DNA of 64,000 nucleotides, taken from positions 102,047-166,046 of the forward strand of contig JAQTMG010000002.1 of the NCBI GenBank assembly GCA_028714455.1. The letters are read 5' to 3'. The notes under the pieces were generated by a model. That model made no database searches. It saw nothing but the letters and a program-made list of their open reading frames with translations, and was not told the DNA's origin. This document shows, piece by piece, positions 2,371 through 62,962 of this stretch (position 1 is its first letter; each line of letters starts with the position of its first letter). The DNA is from Patescibacteria group bacterium. GTDB lineage: Bacteria; Patescibacteriota; Patescibacteriia; CAIXNZ01. A program made the translations under genes and the position numbers.

Positions 2371-2455
2371 GCCCTTTGTCATTCCGAACCGCAGTGAGGA
2401 ATCCAGGACTTATGGATTCCACGCTACGCTCTGAATGACTATTGCGACAAAGGGC
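2371..2455. repeat. cargo-less copy of the GIY-YIG-associated hairpin element
   Basis: GCCCTTTGTCATTCCGAACCGCAGTGAGGAATCC and GGATTCCACGCTACGCTCTGAATGAC..GACAAAGGGC form an inverted repeat. The arms match those flanking the GIY-YIG gene at 59694-60099. Confidence 0.75.
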
Positions 2456-6892: not shown

Positions 6893-7483
6893 CTAACAAA
6901 GATCCAATTGGATTGGCAAAAACGCATCAATTATCTTTTTGATTTCGTAATACAGGTATTGGTCAGTTTCCTCGGCAATAGGCAGAATGTAAATTATCGT
7001 CTCCTTTATCTTACGGACCTGCTTCTCTCGGTCGCAAGAGCTTAAAGTCCGCAGATTGTGCAGGCGGTCAACCAGTTTCAGTATCCTGGTTTTATTGTTT
7101 GAGCGGCGGAGCTTTTGGAAATACTTCTGCAACGTTATGCCGTCGCTTAAATCAGTAGCGGATTTTTTAGTCAGAAATTGAACCGCCTTTTTCACCTCCT
7201 TGCCAAAAATGTGCTCAATGTCCCAGAAGTTCAAAATAAAACTGTCTTCGGGTAAATCATGCAGCAGCGCGCTGCAAAGCATTCTGGGGTCGTAGATTTT
7301 CAGCTCGTCAATCAAAATCAGAGCGCAGCTCTTGGGGTGTTCAAAGTACCTTTCGCCGCTTTCACGAGTTTGACCGCGATGGCCGTATTTCGCCAAGACG
7401 TAGGCCAGAATGACCAGATTGAGTTCGCTCGGCAATAACTTATCTTCCAGTTTTTCTATGAATTCTTCTCTGCCAATAGCCAT
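6893..7483 (-). CDS. HD-domain (p)ppGpp-hydrolase-like protein
   Basis: HRGQTRESGERYFEHP...LLHDLPEDS resembles the SpoT/RelA hydrolase HD domain. AAAGGAGG lies upstream. Confidence 0.75.
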   Translation of the reverse strand: MAIGREEFIEKLEDKLLPSELNLVILAYVLAKYGHRGQTRESGERYFEHPKSCALILIDELKIYDPRMLCSALLHDLPEDSFILNFWDIEHIFGKEVKKAVQFLTKKSATDLSDGITLQKYFQKLRRSNNKTRILKLVDRLHNLRTLSSCDREKQVRKIKETIIYILPIAEETDQYLYYEIKKIIDAFLPIQLDLC

Positions 7484-7518
7484 TTTAACCTCCTTTTTAA
7501 AAGAACCGCTGATATTGG

Positions 7519-7579
7519 AGTTTAATACTTGACAAGCTCCTTGTCAACACTTTACATGAAAATTTAAATATTGTATAAT
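7519..7579. promoter_or_regulatory. divergent promoter region with TTGACAAG-CTC-CTTGTCAA palindrome
   Basis: The palindrome at 7529-7547 supplies TTGACA on both strands. The plus strand has TTTACA-17-TATAAT (7551-7579) and the minus strand has TTGACA-17-TAAACT. Confidence 0.5.
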
Positions 7580-7617: not shown

Positions 7618-8583
7618 ATGAACAAAAAATTTCTAATAGCTTCGCTTCTGGTACTAGTTTTGATATTGTCAGGTTGCGGCATCACAAGTCTGACCCGGGT
7701 TTTGAGCGCTGATGAAGCCAAAGCCAAGGCCGTTGATTTCATCAATAAGAATTTGGTGGCGGCAGGCACCACAGTGACCATAGATAAAGTAACTGAAGAA
7801 AGCGGACTTTACAAGCTGACAGTGACCGTGAACGGCCAGTCAGTCGATTCTTACATGACTAAAGACGGCACTAAATTTTTTACCCAGGCCATTGACATCG
7901 CCCAGGTAGAAAAAGATAACGCGCAAAATAGCGGTCAAGACACCAACACCGCCAAAGAAATACCGAAAAACGATAAGCCAGTCGTTGAACTCTTTGTCAT
8001 GAGCCAGTGTCCCTATGGCACGCAGATTGAAAAAGGCATTATACCGGTCGTTCAAGCCCTTGGTTCAAAAATAGATTTTCAAATAAAATTTGTTGATTAT
8101 GCCATGCATGGAGATGTAGAAATTAAAGAAGAAATGAACCAGGTTTGTATTGAAAAGGATTTCTCCAAAGATTATTTGACCTATCTGCAATGTTTCCTGA
8201 AGGCAGGGGACGGCGCTAGCTGTCTCAAAGAAGCCAAGATTGACACTGCTAAATTAAGTACTTGCGTCAGCGCTTTGGACAAACAATATAGCATCACGGC
8301 TAATGCCGCTGACAAGACAAAGTGGTCCAACGGCACTTATCCTCCCTTTGATGTTAATAAGGCAGATAACGTGAAGTATGGCGTTCAGGGCTCACCCACA
8401 CTGATAATCAACGGTGTTGAATCACAGAGTGCCAGAGATTCAGCCAGTTTATTGAGTGCGATCTGCTCGGGATTTAATACGGCTCCCAGCGGATGCAGCA
8501 CTAAGCTCTCCTCTGACACGCCGGCCGCGGGCTTTGGCACTGGCACTTCTGATACCGCCTCTTCCGCAAGTTGTGGAAATTAA
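7618..8583 (+). CDS. lipoprotein with thioredoxin/DsbA-like domain
   Basis: Signal peptide with an LSGC lipobox, an MSQCPYG redox-like motif and GSPTLIINGV. Confidence 0.65.
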   Translation: MNKKFLIASLLVLVLILSGCGITSLTRVLSADEAKAKAVDFINKNLVAAGTTVTIDKVTEESGLYKLTVTVNGQSVDSYMTKDGTKFFTQAIDIAQVEKDNAQNSGQDTNTAKEIPKNDKPVVELFVMSQCPYGTQIEKGIIPVVQALGSKIDFQIKFVDYAMHGDVEIKEEMNQVCIEKDFSKDYLTYLQCFLKAGDGASCLKEAKIDTAKLSTCVSALDKQYSITANAADKTKWSNGTYPPFDVNKADNVKYGVQGSPTLIINGVESQSARDSASLLSAICSGFNTAPSGCSTKLSSDTPAAGFGTGTSDTASSASCGN

Positions 8584-57435: not shown

Positions 57436-58519
57436 TTTTCCGCCAAAGACAGGCGGCGTGGCCAATTATTTATCTAATCTAAGCGAAAATCTGCCTCATG
57501 ACAAAATTGTTGTTTTGGCTGACAAAAGCGTGGGGCAAACACACCATCATGAAATCAAATACCGATTAATCAAAGAGGATTTATTTTACAGATTCTTCTG
57601 GCCGCGCTGGTTAAAAACTTGCTTTGTCGCGAAGAAAATTATTGATCAAGAAAAAATAGAGCAGGTTATCATCAGCCACGTTTTACCCATGGGCTATGTG
57701 GCTATGTTGCTTGGCTTGCCATATTTTGTAATTTTACACGGACTTGACATTGTCTTGGCCAAGAAATCCATCTGGAAAAGATATTGGCTTAAAAAAATAT
57801 TAAATAGAGCAAAGCACGTTATCATCAATAGTAATTTTACTAAAAAAGAAGTATTGGATATTGGGATTTCTGAAGATAAAATTACTATTGTTAATCCTTG
57901 TCCCAATTTTCAAAAAATGATCATTAACGAAACTGAAAAACAAATTATCAAAAATGAACTGGACTTGCATCATAAAAAAATTCTTTTGTCAGTGGGCCGT
58001 CTTATTCCAAGGAAGGGTTTTGATAAAGTGATTGAAACCTTACCTCAAGTTTTAAAACAGGTTCCCAGCCTAGTTTATCTGATTGTCGGCAGGGGACCAG
58101 ACCGAGAACGCCTGGAAAAACTGGCAGAAAAACTAAGCGTTCTGGGCAACATCACGATTGTTGAGGACGTGCCAGATTCAAATCTGCCGGTTTATTATGA
58201 TTTAGCCGATGTTTTTATTATGCCATCAAGAATTGTAAATAAAACCGATGTTGAGGGCTTTGGCATTGTTTATCTGGAAGCCAATCTTTTGGGCAAGCCG
58301 GTTATTGCTGGCAAAAGCGGAGGAGTAGAAGACGCAGTTATTGATAACCAGACGGGCATTTTAGTAAATCCCGAGGACGCCAATGCCATCGCCATTGCCA
58401 TTATTAAACTTTTTTCCGATGAAAATCTGGCGAACACATTAGGTGTTCAGGGCAAAGCAAGGGTCTTAAATGAATTTTGCTGGTCAAAACAAATTGCCAA
58501 GATTGAAAATATTTTATGA
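57407..58519 (+). CDS. glycosyltransferase family 4
   Basis: GT-B fold with the EGFGIVYLEA motif (E-x7-E). Confidence 0.85.
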   Translation: MKKSLLITNDFPPKTGGVANYLSNLSENLPHDKIVVLADKSVGQTHHHEIKYRLIKEDLFYRFFWPRWLKTCFVAKKIIDQEKIEQVIISHVLPMGYVAMLLGLPYFVILHGLDIVLAKKSIWKRYWLKKILNRAKHVIINSNFTKKEVLDIGISEDKITIVNPCPNFQKMIINETEKQIIKNELDLHHKKILLSVGRLIPRKGFDKVIETLPQVLKQVPSLVYLIVGRGPDRERLEKLAEKLSVLGNITIVEDVPDSNLPVYYDLADVFIMPSRIVNKTDVEGFGIVYLEANLLGKPVIAGKSGGVEDAVIDNQTGILVNPEDANAIAIAIIKLFSDENLANTLGVQGKARVLNEFCWSKQIAKIENIL

Positions 58520-59694
58520 ACCAAAATCAAAAACTAAACATTTTAATGTTTAACATGTCCAAATATAGCGATTGGCAAAAAGGTGTAGTCAATCGCAATT
58601 TTCATATTTTACATAATTTAGCTAAGCGTGATGAAATTAATAAAATAATTGCGGTTGATTTTTTACCTTTTAATTGGAAAAGAGCAATAAAAACTTTTAT
58701 CTACGACCAGATTTTAAAAGACACAAGAGGCACAATTTGTTTTGGGGATTTAACTTCTCAATGCTGGCAAATCTCCAGCAAAATTTTAGTCTATTCAACT
58801 ATTGATTCTATTTTAAATAAAAAAAGAATTATTACGGAATTAAAAAGAATTTTAGACAAAGAGGGGATGAATAATAATTTGATCGTCTGGAACTACAATC
58901 CAATGTATATTGATTATTTTAACCAATTCAAGCAAAGGCTAAATATCTTTGACACGGTCGACAATTGGCTTGAACATTCAAGCTATCAAGAATATAAAAA
59001 TTTACTTCAGAAAAATTACGACACAATTAAGGATGGCAGTGATCTGATTTTTACCGTTTCAGAAAACTTGAAACAAAATCTTTTTAACAACCAGGAAAGC
59101 GCTCACTGGATTCCGAATGCCGTTGATTTGGATTATTTCCAAAACCAGACAAACATCTCGCCAAAATTACAGAATATTCCCAAACCGATTATCGGTTTTC
59201 TGGGAATTTTACAAGACAGAATTGATCTTGAAATTCTGCTAAATTTAGCCAAAAATAACCCTGAAAAATCTTTAATTTTAGCCGGTCCTGTTTGGAAAAA
59301 TTTTCCCAGAGAAAAATTTAACGGCTTAAAAAATGTTTATTTTCTTGGCCCAATAGGTTACTCGGAAATTCCGTCGCTTTATAACGGCTTTGACGTCGGC
59401 ATTATTCCATACAAAATCAACGCCTTCATCAAATCAACTGATCCCATGAAATATTATGAATATCTGGCGGCCAATTTGCCGGTGGTTTCAACTCCGGCGC
59501 CGGGCATTGAAAGATTTGGCAATTTAATTAAAGTTGCCAAAACACCCGAAGAATTTAATGTAATGGTTAATCAAGCCTTGAGTGAAGGAAAAGATAGGCA
59601 AAGAGAAGAAAGAATAAAGATTCTTCAAAATAATACGTGGGGCGACAGAATTGAAGAAATGTTAAAATTAATAAACGCAAGGTGGTCCACATAG
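58516..59694 (+). CDS. glycosyltransferase (GT-B like)
   Basis: C-terminal PMKYYEYLAANLPVVS motif. It lies in an operon with the other GTs. Confidence 0.6.
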   Translation: MNQNQKLNILMFNMSKYSDWQKGVVNRNFHILHNLAKRDEINKIIAVDFLPFNWKRAIKTFIYDQILKDTRGTICFGDLTSQCWQISSKILVYSTIDSILNKKRIITELKRILDKEGMNNNLIVWNYNPMYIDYFNQFKQRLNIFDTVDNWLEHSSYQEYKNLLQKNYDTIKDGSDLIFTVSENLKQNLFNNQESAHWIPNAVDLDYFQNQTNISPKLQNIPKPIIGFLGILQDRIDLEILLNLAKNNPEKSLILAGPVWKNFPREKFNGLKNVYFLGPIGYSEIPSLYNGFDVGIIPYKINAFIKSTDPMKYYEYLAANLPVVSTPAPGIERFGNLIKVAKTPEEFNVMVNQALSEGKDRQREERIKILQNNTWGDRIEEMLKLINARWST

Positions 59695-60099
59695 TCATTC
59701 CGAGCGTAGCGCGAGGAATCCATAACATCGATTAATATGAAACAATATTGCGTTTACATAATGACTAACAAAAGTGACTCCGTGGATTATACCGGCATAA
59801 CGAATAATTTATTTCGAAGAGTATACGAGCATAAAACCCATTTTAATGAGAAGAGTTTTACTTCAAAATATAATATCAATAAATTAGTTTATTTTGAGGA
59901 ATATAATAATCCCGATCAAGCCATATACAGAGAAAAGCAAATAAAGGGCTTGAGTAGAGAAAAAAAATTTAATTTAATAAAAACTATCAATCCTGATTTT
60001 AATGATTTGGCCAGAGATTGGTATAAAGATAGCCAGGCCGAGCGCAAAGAACAACCGACTCAACCTAAATCATAGATTCCACGCTGCGCTCTGAATGAC
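59694..60099 (+). mobile_element. GIY-YIG gene nested between inverted hairpin arms
   Basis: The left arm GTCATTCCGAGCGTAGCGCGAGGAATCC (59694-59721) and right arm GATTCCACGCTGCGCTCTGAATGAC (60075-60099) are mutually complementary. They touch the stop codons of the flanking and cargo genes. Confidence 0.65.
59737..60075 (+). CDS. GIY-YIG nuclease family protein
   Basis: CVYIMTN...YTGITNNLFRRVYEH...E..K motifs of the GIY-YIG fold. Confidence 0.85.
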   Translation: MKQYCVYIMTNKSDSVDYTGITNNLFRRVYEHKTHFNEKSFTSKYNINKLVYFEEYNNPDQAIYREKQIKGLSREKKFNLIKTINPDFNDLARDWYKDSQAERKEQPTQPKS

Positions 60100-60125
60100 A
60101 GTTGTGGCTCGGCTTTTGCAAAAAT

Positions 60126-61501: not shown

Positions 61502-62962
61502 ATGTCAGATATAACAAATCTCTTAAAAAATAATAAAATCCAAATATTTTTGGCTATTTTAATCATTGAAATACTTTCTTTAATTAGTTTTAAAATTACC
61601 TGGCTTTCAGGAATATTTTTTGTCTTAATCTGTCTAGGCGTTTTAATTTTAACCTGGCGCAAATTAGAAAATGGCGTCTTGATTGCCTTGGCTGAATTGA
61701 TAATTGGCTCACAAGGATATTTATTTTATCTGATGTTACCCGGATTTAAGGTCTCAATTCGTCTGGGAATTTTTCTGATTGTATTTTTTGTCTGGTTATT
61801 TAAATATTTCAACTTCAGGAATTTCCTCAATTTATTGAGGAAGGATAGGCTAGTTCAAAATTTCATTTTACTTTTAGTTTTTATTGCTTTTGGCGCAATC
61901 AATGGTTTAATTCACAAAAATGGCGCTAGCAATGTTTTTTTTGATCTAAACGGTTATTTATATTTCGGACTCTTTTTTGTCTTTCTGGATGCTTTCAAGG
62001 ATAAAGAATTACCCAATAAATTTATTAATGTTTTACTTGCCGCTTTAACCTATGTTTCTCTGGAAATATTTTTTACTCTTTATATTTTCTCACATTCAAT
62101 TCCATATTTGCCTGATTTATTTTACCACTGGATTCGCGATACCAGGGTAGGGGAGATTACTTATGCCGGCGCTAATTTTTTCCGCGTTTTTTTCCAGTCG
62201 CAAATCTGGACGCTGGAAAGTATATTTATTATTCTATGCATTCTGTTATTAAATAAAAAGTCCAAGTGGCTATATATTCTCTTAATCTTTCTTCAAACTT
62301 CCATTCTAATCAGTTTTGCCCGCAGTTTCTGGCTTGGCGGCGCCGTGGCTATGGCGTTTTTATTCGGTTATTTAATTTACACTCGAATAAAAGAATGGCA
62401 GAAATTATTAAAAAATATTGGCTTAATGATTAGCGCTGCTATTCTAAGTGTTGTCTTGATTTTCGCGATTGCCAATTTTCCATTACCCAAACCCACGGCT
62501 TATTTTACGGCTGATATGTTAGTTGGCAGATTTACTCTGTTTAGCGATGCCGCTGCTTCTAGCCGCTGGCAAGAGCTGCCAGTGATTTTGGAAAAAATAA
62601 AAACCAGCCCCATTTTTGGCGCTGGCTTTGGTTCCACTATTACTTATAAAACCGAGGATCCGCGAATCAAAAATACCGATAATCCAGAAGGCTGGTATAC
62701 CACCTACACTTTTGAATGGGGTTTTTTAGATACGATTACGGAAATTGGTATTATTGGTTTATTGGTTTATTTAGTTTTTATCGGCCAGATCTTTTATCTG
62801 GGGCTTAAGGGCAGGGGAGAGAATTGGCTAAAAATTGGTTTGTTACTCGGTTTGATTGCTTTAGTAATAACTAATATCTCCAGTCCATATTTGAATCATC
62901 CACTGGGTATTGGCTATTTGCTTCTCTGTGCTGGAATATTTGAATCAAGATTGTCCGATTAA
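61502..62962 (+). CDS. O-antigen ligase/polymerase-like membrane protein
   Basis: About 12 TM helices with a Wzy_C-like loop region. It lies in the glycan cluster. Confidence 0.6.
   Translation: MSDITNLLKNNKIQIFLAILIIEILSLISFKITWLSGIFFVLICLGVLILTWRKLENGVLIALAELIIGSQGYLFYLMLPGFKVSIRLGIFLIVFFVWLFKYFNFRNFLNLLRKDRLVQNFILLLVFIAFGAINGLIHKNGASNVFFDLNGYLYFGLFFVFLDAFKDKELPNKFINVLLAALTYVSLEIFFTLYIFSHSIPYLPDLFYHWIRDTRVGEITYAGANFFRVFFQSQIWTLESIFIILCILLLNKKSKWLYILLIFLQTSILISFARSFWLGGAVAMAFLFGYLIYTRIKEWQKLLKNIGLMISAAILSVVLIFAIANFPLPKPTAYFTADMLVGRFTLFSDAAASSRWQELPVILEKIKTSPIFGAGFGSTITYKTEDPRIKNTDNPEGWYTTYTFEWGFLDTITEIGIIGLLVYLVFIGQIFYLGLKGRGENWLKIGLLLGLIALVITNISSPYLNHPLGIGYLLLCAGIFESRLSD

Follow-up and report, generated by a model that had tools for sequence, protein, structure and literature searches.

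An Ssn-type nuclease gene between hairpin repeats: a probable insertion unit with a putative non-autonomous derivative in a Patescibacteria genome

The ssn gene and its flanking arms

Between two glycosyltransferase genes in the stretch analysed here (64,000 nucleotides (nt) of contig JAQTMG010000002.1 from a Patescibacteria group bacterium, G+C content 40%, referred to throughout as the window) lies a small open reading frame (ORF) with homology to Neisseria SsnA, and on either side of this ssn gene stands a short hairpin repeat, or arm, of the type called an Ssn-related motif (SRM). The ORF and both arms occupy the 431 nt that separate the stop codon of the upstream glycosyltransferase gene from the ATG of the downstream one. 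The features are as follows, with arm scores given for R1, a covariance model whose training arms came from elsewhere than the window genome.

58516-59694: GT1-type glycosyltransferase gene, upstream neighbour of ssn
59691..59723, + strand: left SRM-type arm (core 59694-59721), R1 30.8 bits, E=8e-5
59737..60075, + strand: ssn gene, 112-amino-acid (aa) single-domain GIY-YIG protein (Pfam PF01541, SsnA homology)
60072..60102, - strand: right SRM-type arm (core 60075-60099), R1 21.9 bits, E=0.008
60126 (ATG): GT2-type glycosyltransferase gene (Pfam PF00535, E=5.6e-25), downstream neighbour of ssn

A preliminary description of this DNA had placed a 112-aa GIY-YIG ORF at 59737-60075, between near-reverse-complementary arms that fit the gap between the two glycosyltransferase genes. 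Coordinates, domain and fit were all borne out, PF01541 being the sole Pfam domain of the protein (E=3.1e-14, residues 3-79). The placing of the arm starts on the last bases of stop codons was likewise correct: the left arm starts at 59694, the G that closes the GT1 TAG stop (59692-59694), and the right arm at 60075, the G that closes the ssn TAG stop.

The left arm, GTCATTCCGAGCGTAGCGCGAGGAATCC (59694-59721), has the layout GTC-ATTCC-GA-GCGTAGCGC-GA-GGAAT-CC and folds on itself as a hairpin. The right arm, GATTCCACGCTGCGCTCTGAATGAC (60075-60099), reads GTCATTCAGAGCGCAGCGTGGAATC on the - strand and is degenerate: its stem base has an A.G mismatch, and GU replaces GA; R1 marks two non-canonical pairs in it. 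The arms are reverse complements of one another save for a few mismatches and one indel, and an inverted-repeat search paired an 18-nt segment (89% complementary) and a 13-nt segment (85% complementary) between them. The 18-nt arm core, allowing ≤3 mismatches, matched three times in the window against 0.02 expected, and an R1 scan of the whole 64 kb with filters off returned exactly four arms, at 2375-2406(+), 2412-2442(-), 59691-59723(+) and 60072-60102(-). No Rfam family matched the arms, either at the gathering threshold (window and eight arm-rich loci) or at an E-value threshold (locus), and a literature search with the arm strings GTCATTGCGAG and TCGCAATGAC recovered only primers.

Arms of this kind proved to be a general companion of the gene. 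For a survey, 80 genomic loci were fetched with 10-kb flanks around homologues from Bacteroidota, Cyanobacteriota, Chloroflexota, Planctomycetota, Bacillota, Nitrospirota, several lineages of the candidate phyla radiation (CPR) and others. Most surveyed genes stand between arms that follow the scheme tGTC-A-NNNN-GA-(small hairpin, in many cases GCGAAGC)-GA(A)-N'N'N'N'-T-CTC, and a strict version of this pattern matched 378 times in 1.22 Mb around 83 homologues, compared with 13-19 times in shuffles. Within 50 nt upstream of the start codon arm density was 8.5/kb, and within 50 nt downstream of the stop 7.6/kb, falling to 0.04-0.1/kb at >1 kb from ssn genes, an enrichment of about 100-fold beside ssn. 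Among the 83 ssn genes the order left arm-ORF-right arm (L-ORF-R, as in the window) was seen in 26 and R-ORF-L in 10, with at least one arm within 150 nt in 68; arms stood on both sides of 53% of the genes and on one side or both of 82%.

Half-sites from the 5′ side (GTC-A-NNNN-GA) were followed by their own complement in 43% of cases overall and in 83-93% within the main classes, compared with 1.9% for the complement of a foreign half-site, and 16 recurring stem types covaried across 82 loci. Because stem variants covary in this way, each arm is its own small hairpin, and the earlier notion that the gene is carried inside one large hairpin was not upheld. The single-stranded GTC and C flanks of the arms are conserved in an orientation-specific manner, and arms are found in both orientations relative to transcription.

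Two further arrangements of arms were also recovered. At L146 (~1560-1640) and L180 (~905-985), loci in which the arms directly follow an ssn ORF, a complete arm was nested in the variable inner hairpin of another; such nesting may explain the variable inserts of many arms. At L064 (7380-7800, 16590-16760) and L017 (11825-11946), complete arms follow a series of truncated half-arms from the 5′ side (for example GTCATCCTGAGCC with a T-run, repeating every 20-23 nt), and these half-arms look like stuttered or abortive copies.

The Ssn family, a group of site-specific endonucleases of single-stranded DNA (ssDNA), has as its prototype SsnA of N. meningitidis, a 94-aa single-domain GIY-YIG protein (CDD cd10448) (Chenal et al. 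2025, Nat Commun 16:2388, PMC11893778). SsnA binds the NTS repeat CGTCATTCCCGCGMAVGCGGGAATCYRG as ssDNA only and on one strand only, with the cut falling a few nt upstream, and the substitutions Y6A, Y17A and E64A abolish cleavage (PMC11893778). Four Ssn homologues (from N. meningitidis, N. elongata, N. wadsworthii and Wolbachia) cut beside their own repeats; no cutting of double-stranded DNA (dsDNA) was seen for the characterised Ssn enzymes, nor RNA binding for SsnA (PMC11893778). SRMs occur near 71% of Ssn homologues, on both sides in 42%, and SsnA lowers the transformation of N. meningitidis by NTS-bearing DNA ~5-fold (PMC11893778). The NTS-ssnA-NTS layout has been called insertion sequence (IS)-like, with domestication proposed and mobility raised only as a hypothesis (PMC11893778).

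The window protein shared 38% identity over 92 aa with the 94-aa SsnA of N. gonorrhoeae (E=2e-22), and alignment of its family profile to gonococcal SsnA with hhalign gave a probability of 99.7% (E=4e-27). Residues Y7, Y18 and E66 align with Y6, Y17 and E64 of SsnA and were invariant or nearly so across 24 homologues. The window protein is thus, by homology, a member of the Ssn family and a predicted site-specific ssDNA endonuclease. Its homologues number 3715 at E<1e-5, mostly of 93-100 aa (range 92-126) and 55-65% identical, from very distant phyla, the nearest being from Candidatus Falkowbacteria. NCBIfam gave no match for the window protein, and PADLOC and PHROGs nothing informative, a PHROG ‘homing endonuclease’ match being marginal (E=0.006). 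The only solved structures detectable by sequence, 1ZG2 (E=5e-8) and 1YWL (E=5e-5), were found with the family profile and matched far more weakly than SsnA (PMC1564403 for these structures).

The gonococcal ORF was found by tblastn of a plasmid collection (PLSDB), in NZ_CP119140.1, with 16 NTS repeats around it within 3.3 kb. This entry and NZ_CP119142.1 are 2.17-Mb N. gonorrhoeae chromosomes, almost unannotated and misfiled as plasmids, and it was this misfiling that made the comparison with SsnA possible. Homologues of ssn with adjacent arms were also present on two contigs catalogued as viral in IMG/VR (L196, 2851-2941; L197, 2832-3498), which could be host DNA of a mis-binned prophage or else a means of horizontal gene transfer.

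The window arms and the NTS repeat have common termini, GTCATTCC...GGAATC, and R1 aligned full-length to gonococcal NTS repeats at 12-16 bits. The stem of the arms in this clade is interrupted by a tandem GA/GA (GTC-ATTCC-GA-hairpin-GA-GGAAT-C), and by their sequence the arms are Ssn-related hairpin motifs of a GA/GA-bulged variant. The published SRM pattern, HGTCWYN(0-2)YYVSBRHN(0-5)WNVSBRGN(0-2)RNCYNB, which is an operational tool of that paper rather than a definition of the family, matches the NTS consensus itself but none of the window arms, and in the 1.22 Mb comprising the window and loci L001-L081 it matched nine times, as it did in shuffles. The bulged repeat is used by a large clade that includes Patescibacteria, Bacteroidota, Cyanobacteriota, Chloroflexota, Planctomycetota and others; since the published search pattern misses it, published counts of SRMs and of enzyme-site pairs may be underestimates.

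The glycosyltransferase junction and ORF-less copies

The junction of the GT1 and GT2 genes was found filled, empty and with a remnant among relatives. In a sister genome (Ca. Falkowbacteria, GCA_016927685, locus L001) the unit stands at the same site with its arms kept and an Ssn protein 94% identical to that of the window. Two close relatives have no ORF there: in L082 (GT1 85% identical) GT2 follows GT1 after 50 nt, in L083 (GT1 84% identical) after 27 nt, and R1 with filters off found no arm at either junction. In a third relative, L084 (GT1 75% identical), a 73-nt spacer, also ORF-less, holds an arm remnant of a different stem type. The empty L082 allele reads CCCCCATA, 16 nt, GCGGCTCG; the filled L001 allele reads CCCCCATA, GTCATTCC...GAATGACAGTT, GCGGCTCG, and its flanks align with those of L082 on both sides. 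The last base of the GT1 stop codon is contributed by the insertion. The uninterrupted junction that the preliminary description proposed to look for among relatives was therefore found, in L082 and L083. The ssn unit is an insertion, acquired before the divergence of the window genome from GCA_016927685, and nearer GT-operon relatives are without it. The proposal of a compact mobile unit rather than a housekeeping nuclease stands in so far as the unit is compact, self-contained and inserted; its homing-type label does not, there being no DNA-binding domain, intron or intein.

The other two arms of the window form a doublet between gatC and gatA:

2372..2454, no strand assigned: ORF-less palindromic unit, full extent, an outer stem enclosing the arm doublet; MITE-like, that is, resembling a miniature inverted-repeat transposable element
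2375..2406, + strand: left arm of the doublet (core 2378-2404, GTCATTCCGAACCGCAGTGAGGAATCC), R1 37.6 bits, E=2e-6
2412..2442, - strand: right arm of the doublet (core 2414-2439), R1 16.7 bits

This unit sits in the 95-nt gatC-gatA spacer, with a 9-nt loop between its arms and an outer stem of 9 bp pairing CCCTTTGTC (2372-2380) with GACAAAGGG (2446-2454); the whole doublet folds as DNA at -20.8 kcal/mol (z=-5.2). Its right arm is the same degenerate variant as that of the ssn unit, one base apart (GTCATTCAGAGCG[C/T]AGCGTGGAATC), each copy being paired with a well-formed left arm, and similarity between the two units extends a few nt inward of the arms (GGAATCCAnnAC on the left, AT[A/G]GATTCC on the right). 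Given these common arm variants and the inward similarity, the doublet looks like an internal-deletion derivative of the ORF-bearing unit. It is kept in the sister genome (L102), and a different arm type occupies the gatC-gatA junction in L103 (GatC 91% identical). No exact empty site of any doublet was recovered.

Copies of the arms without the ORF, which the preliminary description proposed to search for, thus exist at 2378-2439 of the window, and many more were found in metagenomes: the exact right-arm variant of the window had 97 occurrences across 447 kb of metagenome sequence (92 stretches), and an Ssn homologue is encoded in only 4/92 stretches. A partner arm lay within 130 nt for 49/97 occurrences, in 45 distinct contexts. 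Outer inverted repeats of at least 8 bp, resembling bidirectional terminators with A and T runs, enclosed 31/45 of these doublets; the mean best outer stem was 10.8, compared with 5.6 for permuted pairs, and 9.5% of controls reached 8 bp. The outer stems belong to a few recurrent types common to loci whose farther flanks are unrelated (20 pairs), and are therefore part of the repeated unit rather than a targeted hairpin. For the 95 arm pairs of the genome survey, outer-flank complementarity was not enriched (mean 3.3 vs 3.0).

Insertion of the unit into pre-existing hairpins was accordingly considered and rejected, as the outer stems recur with unrelated farther flanks. The hairpin targeting suggested earlier fails on the same ground, since the outer palindromes of ORF-less doublets travel with the element, and the empty site of the ORF-bearing unit contains no hairpin. 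The broader link of the enzyme family to hairpins was well founded: Ssn enzymes do act on them.

Arms were also found within genes. The Wzy-like gene of the sister genome contains an in-frame doublet (L001, 12762-12845) that adds PLCHPERSEGSKTLGVIDSSHSFGMTERV and is absent from the window orthologue (61502-62962); its boundaries are not exact to the nucleotide, the two Wzy genes being only 72% identical. The Wzy_C gene of L084 (6683-8299), 52 aa longer than the window orthologue, has arms at 7461-7547 and 8105-8136. Together the two genes suggest that loops of membrane proteins tolerate arm insertions.

Arm number varies beside otherwise constant genes. Identical Ssn proteins are encoded between mutS and mutL in many samples, with the downstream arm present in 1, 2, 3 or more tandem copies at a 48-nt period. 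On metagenome contigs L094-L101 (e.g. L094 1-147, 3001-3291, 3285-3450) mutS lies between two ssn copies; here the tandem 48-nt units are the arm downstream of the second ssn copy, and their number differs while the protein is identical.

The neighbourhoods of both window units hold other features. The window GT4 and GT1 genes overlap by 4 nt (58516-58519); in relatives the GT4-GT1 junction (L001 8160-8800, L084 3672-3899, L083 93-344) contains one or two reverse-strand ORFs of 53-83 aa, accompanied by terminator-like hairpins and duplicated fragments of neighbouring gene ends, and this content resembles a further small insertion cassette within the operon. Between the flippase and GT4 genes of L082, which is a relative without the ssn unit, a 163-aa ORF (2218-2709) has a weak Pfam match to Y1_Tnp (IS200/RAYT-like). 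Upstream of the gatC-gatA doublet, a G+C-rich hairpin of 14 bp (GGGGGGCCAAATCGAC ... GCCGATTTGACCCC, window ~1925-1997) lies between murB (899-1831) and gatC; it is kept in L102 and L103 with three compensatory pairs and has no Rfam match, a small RNA or a further palindromic element being possible identities.

Mobile unit, host system or other explanation

At a probability of roughly 85%, we read the locus as an SRM-ssn-SRM unit carrying a member of the Ssn family, inserted at the GT1-GT2 junction, with a non-autonomous derivative at 2372-2454. By analogy with the characterised homologues, the window Ssn would bind its cognate hairpin repeat only when the latter is single-stranded and in one orientation, and would cut the repeat-bearing strand a few nt 5′ of the repeat. 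The left arm would then be a + strand site, with a predicted cut in the last GT1 codons just left of 59694, and the right arm a - strand site, with a predicted cut just right of 60099; with L-ORF-R polarity, both predicted nicks fall outside the unit and bracket it. The nuclease might mobilise and multiply arms and doublets in an IS/MITE-like fashion, analogous to RAYT/REPIN systems, and like SsnA in Neisseria it may also restrict incoming ssDNA that bears SRMs. The empty and remnant alleles, together with the ORF-less doublets, support an IS/MITE-like lifestyle.

A number of observations weigh against this reading. To our knowledge, no strand-transfer activity has been described for GIY-YIG enzymes; no target-site duplication was recognised, nor any pair of near-identical ORF-bearing copies in differing contexts, and active transposition is therefore not demonstrated. 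The empty L082 site holds 16 nt (CTCATTACAAGCAAAA) for which this reading does not account. Identical Ssn proteins occupy fixed operon positions on up to 24 contigs from many samples, and this stability, like the lack of known strand transfer and of target-site duplication, speaks against a simple transposase. The right arms, being imperfect hairpins, may be poor substrates, and the published SRM pattern overlaps just 1/405 survey arms. The arms are of the GA/GA-bulged variant and the specificity of SsnA is therefore not directly transferable to them, and polarity is opposite in the two systems, L-ORF-R in the window and R-ORF-L in N. gonorrhoeae.

A wider proposal, which we hold tentatively and rate somewhat short of even odds, is that SRM-ssn-SRM units are a new class of autonomous mobile elements spread across Patescibacteria and many other phyla, in which a GIY-YIG ssDNA nuclease serves as ‘transposase’ and terminator-like ORF-less doublets are the MITEs, with landing sites between the genes of operons and, in frame, even within genes for membrane proteins. 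If so, the filled, empty and remnant alleles described here would be the first comparative evidence for their mobility. The kind of element is already published (2025), although the GA/GA variant repeat differs from that description; the evidence for insertion and for a MITE-like derivative goes modestly beyond the literature that our search recovered, which comprised the original paper and two unrelated papers citing it and no other relevant work on GIY-YIG nucleases with MITEs or RAYT, in Patescibacteria, or under COG2827.

The strongest competitor, unlikely in our judgement yet deserving serious weight, is a domesticated, vertically inherited host system in which genomic hairpins are used to control the integration of incoming ssDNA or some other ssDNA transaction. 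The ~5-fold effect of SsnA on transformation by NTS-bearing DNA in N. meningitidis (PMC11893778) speaks for it, as do the intact ORF with its catalytic residues kept, the presence of the unit at the same site in two sister genomes and the fixed operon positions of identical proteins noted above. Four arms in 64 kb are, however, too few for genome-wide policing of recombination, and the unit is missing from nearer GT-operon relatives. Homologues from many phyla are 55-65% identical, which indicates horizontal spread, and doublets lacking the ORF turn up within coding sequences and in contexts unrelated to one another.

Far less probable is that the arms act in RNA, in transcript stabilisation, attenuation or termination around a small gene, instead of as nuclease sites. 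Arms and doublet do fold well as RNA (-37 kcal/mol, z=-6.7), and the metagenomic doublets lie inside terminator-like palindromes with A and T runs; but SsnA does not bind RNA (PMC11893778), the arms match no Rfam family and occur in both orientations relative to transcription, and the conservation of their single-stranded GTC and C flanks is specific to orientation. Termination would moreover be harmful where doublets lie within the gatC-gatA operon or in frame in genes.

Very improbable, in turn, is a classical free-standing GIY-YIG homing endonuclease that made a dsDNA cut at the empty GT1-GT2 junction and was copied in by repair. A compact ORF placed exactly between two genes, filled and empty alleles, and the weak PHROG match speak for such an enzyme. 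Against it, the protein has 112 aa and no DNA-binding module, unlike GIY-YIG enzymes of the homing type, in which NUMOD or other domains are present (PMC1564403), and its closest characterised relatives do not cut dsDNA (PMC11893778). Homing also gives no role to the conserved flanking hairpins and the ORF-less doublets, and the insertion sites of homologues (GT operon, ABC2 genes, mutS-mutL) are unrelated. Only the modest length of the arms would favour an inverted repeat of chance or local origin, unconnected with the ORF; this reading can be dismissed in view of the excess of arm-core matches in the window, the family-wide enrichment and the covariation.

On the inserted SRM-ssn-SRM reading, the locus should be annotated as an Ssn-family ssDNA endonuclease with SRM repeats, rather than as a homing endonuclease or an ‘excinuclease C’ fragment. 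The site polymorphism, ORF-less doublets and in-frame insertions are concrete loci at which the IS-like hypothesis can be tested, and every new pairing of enzyme and repeat offers biotechnology a candidate for the site-specific cutting of ssDNA.

Comparison with known systems

Among stand-alone minimal GIY-YIG domains of ~100 aa, the Slx1-like/UPF0213 proteins (1ZG2, 1YWL; YhbQ/YazA type) resemble the window protein in size and architecture, and we know of no association of theirs with flanking repeats. They are treated as a group separate from the Ssn family (PMC11893778). Homing endonucleases of the I-TevI type differ from the window protein, which has neither an extra domain nor an intron context.

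Rickettsia palindromic elements (RPE) are reportedly inserted in frame in coding genes. The ORF-less units described here are like these and other MITEs in being palindromes of ~90-130 nt that lie between genes and, in the Wzy genes of L001 and L084, in frame within them; they are unlike them in that a cognate nuclease gene with the same ends can be identified, and in that target-site duplication was not recognised. With repetitive extragenic palindromes and their RAYT (REPIN) and with IS200/IS605 the window system has in common a small nuclease gene between inverted hairpin repeats, dispersed intergenic non-autonomous doublets, and recognition of ssDNA hairpins by the enzyme, which for the window is predicted from SsnA. 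The likeness of architecture to RAYT is one of analogy only, the window enzyme being of the GIY-YIG type and not a Y1 HUH transposase (no Y1_Tnp).

The nearest system is that of SsnA and the NTS repeat. It differs in copy number, pathogenic Neisseria having hundreds of repeats against four arms in 64 kb of the window, and in host, the window system belonging to the Patescibacteria (CPR) and being known from sequence. In both, a single-domain GIY-YIG protein of ~94-112 aa, alignable end to end and with the catalytic Tyr, Tyr and Glu kept, is encoded by a gene bracketed by inverted, oriented hairpin repeats, and copies of these repeats are also scattered at other sites that lack the gene.

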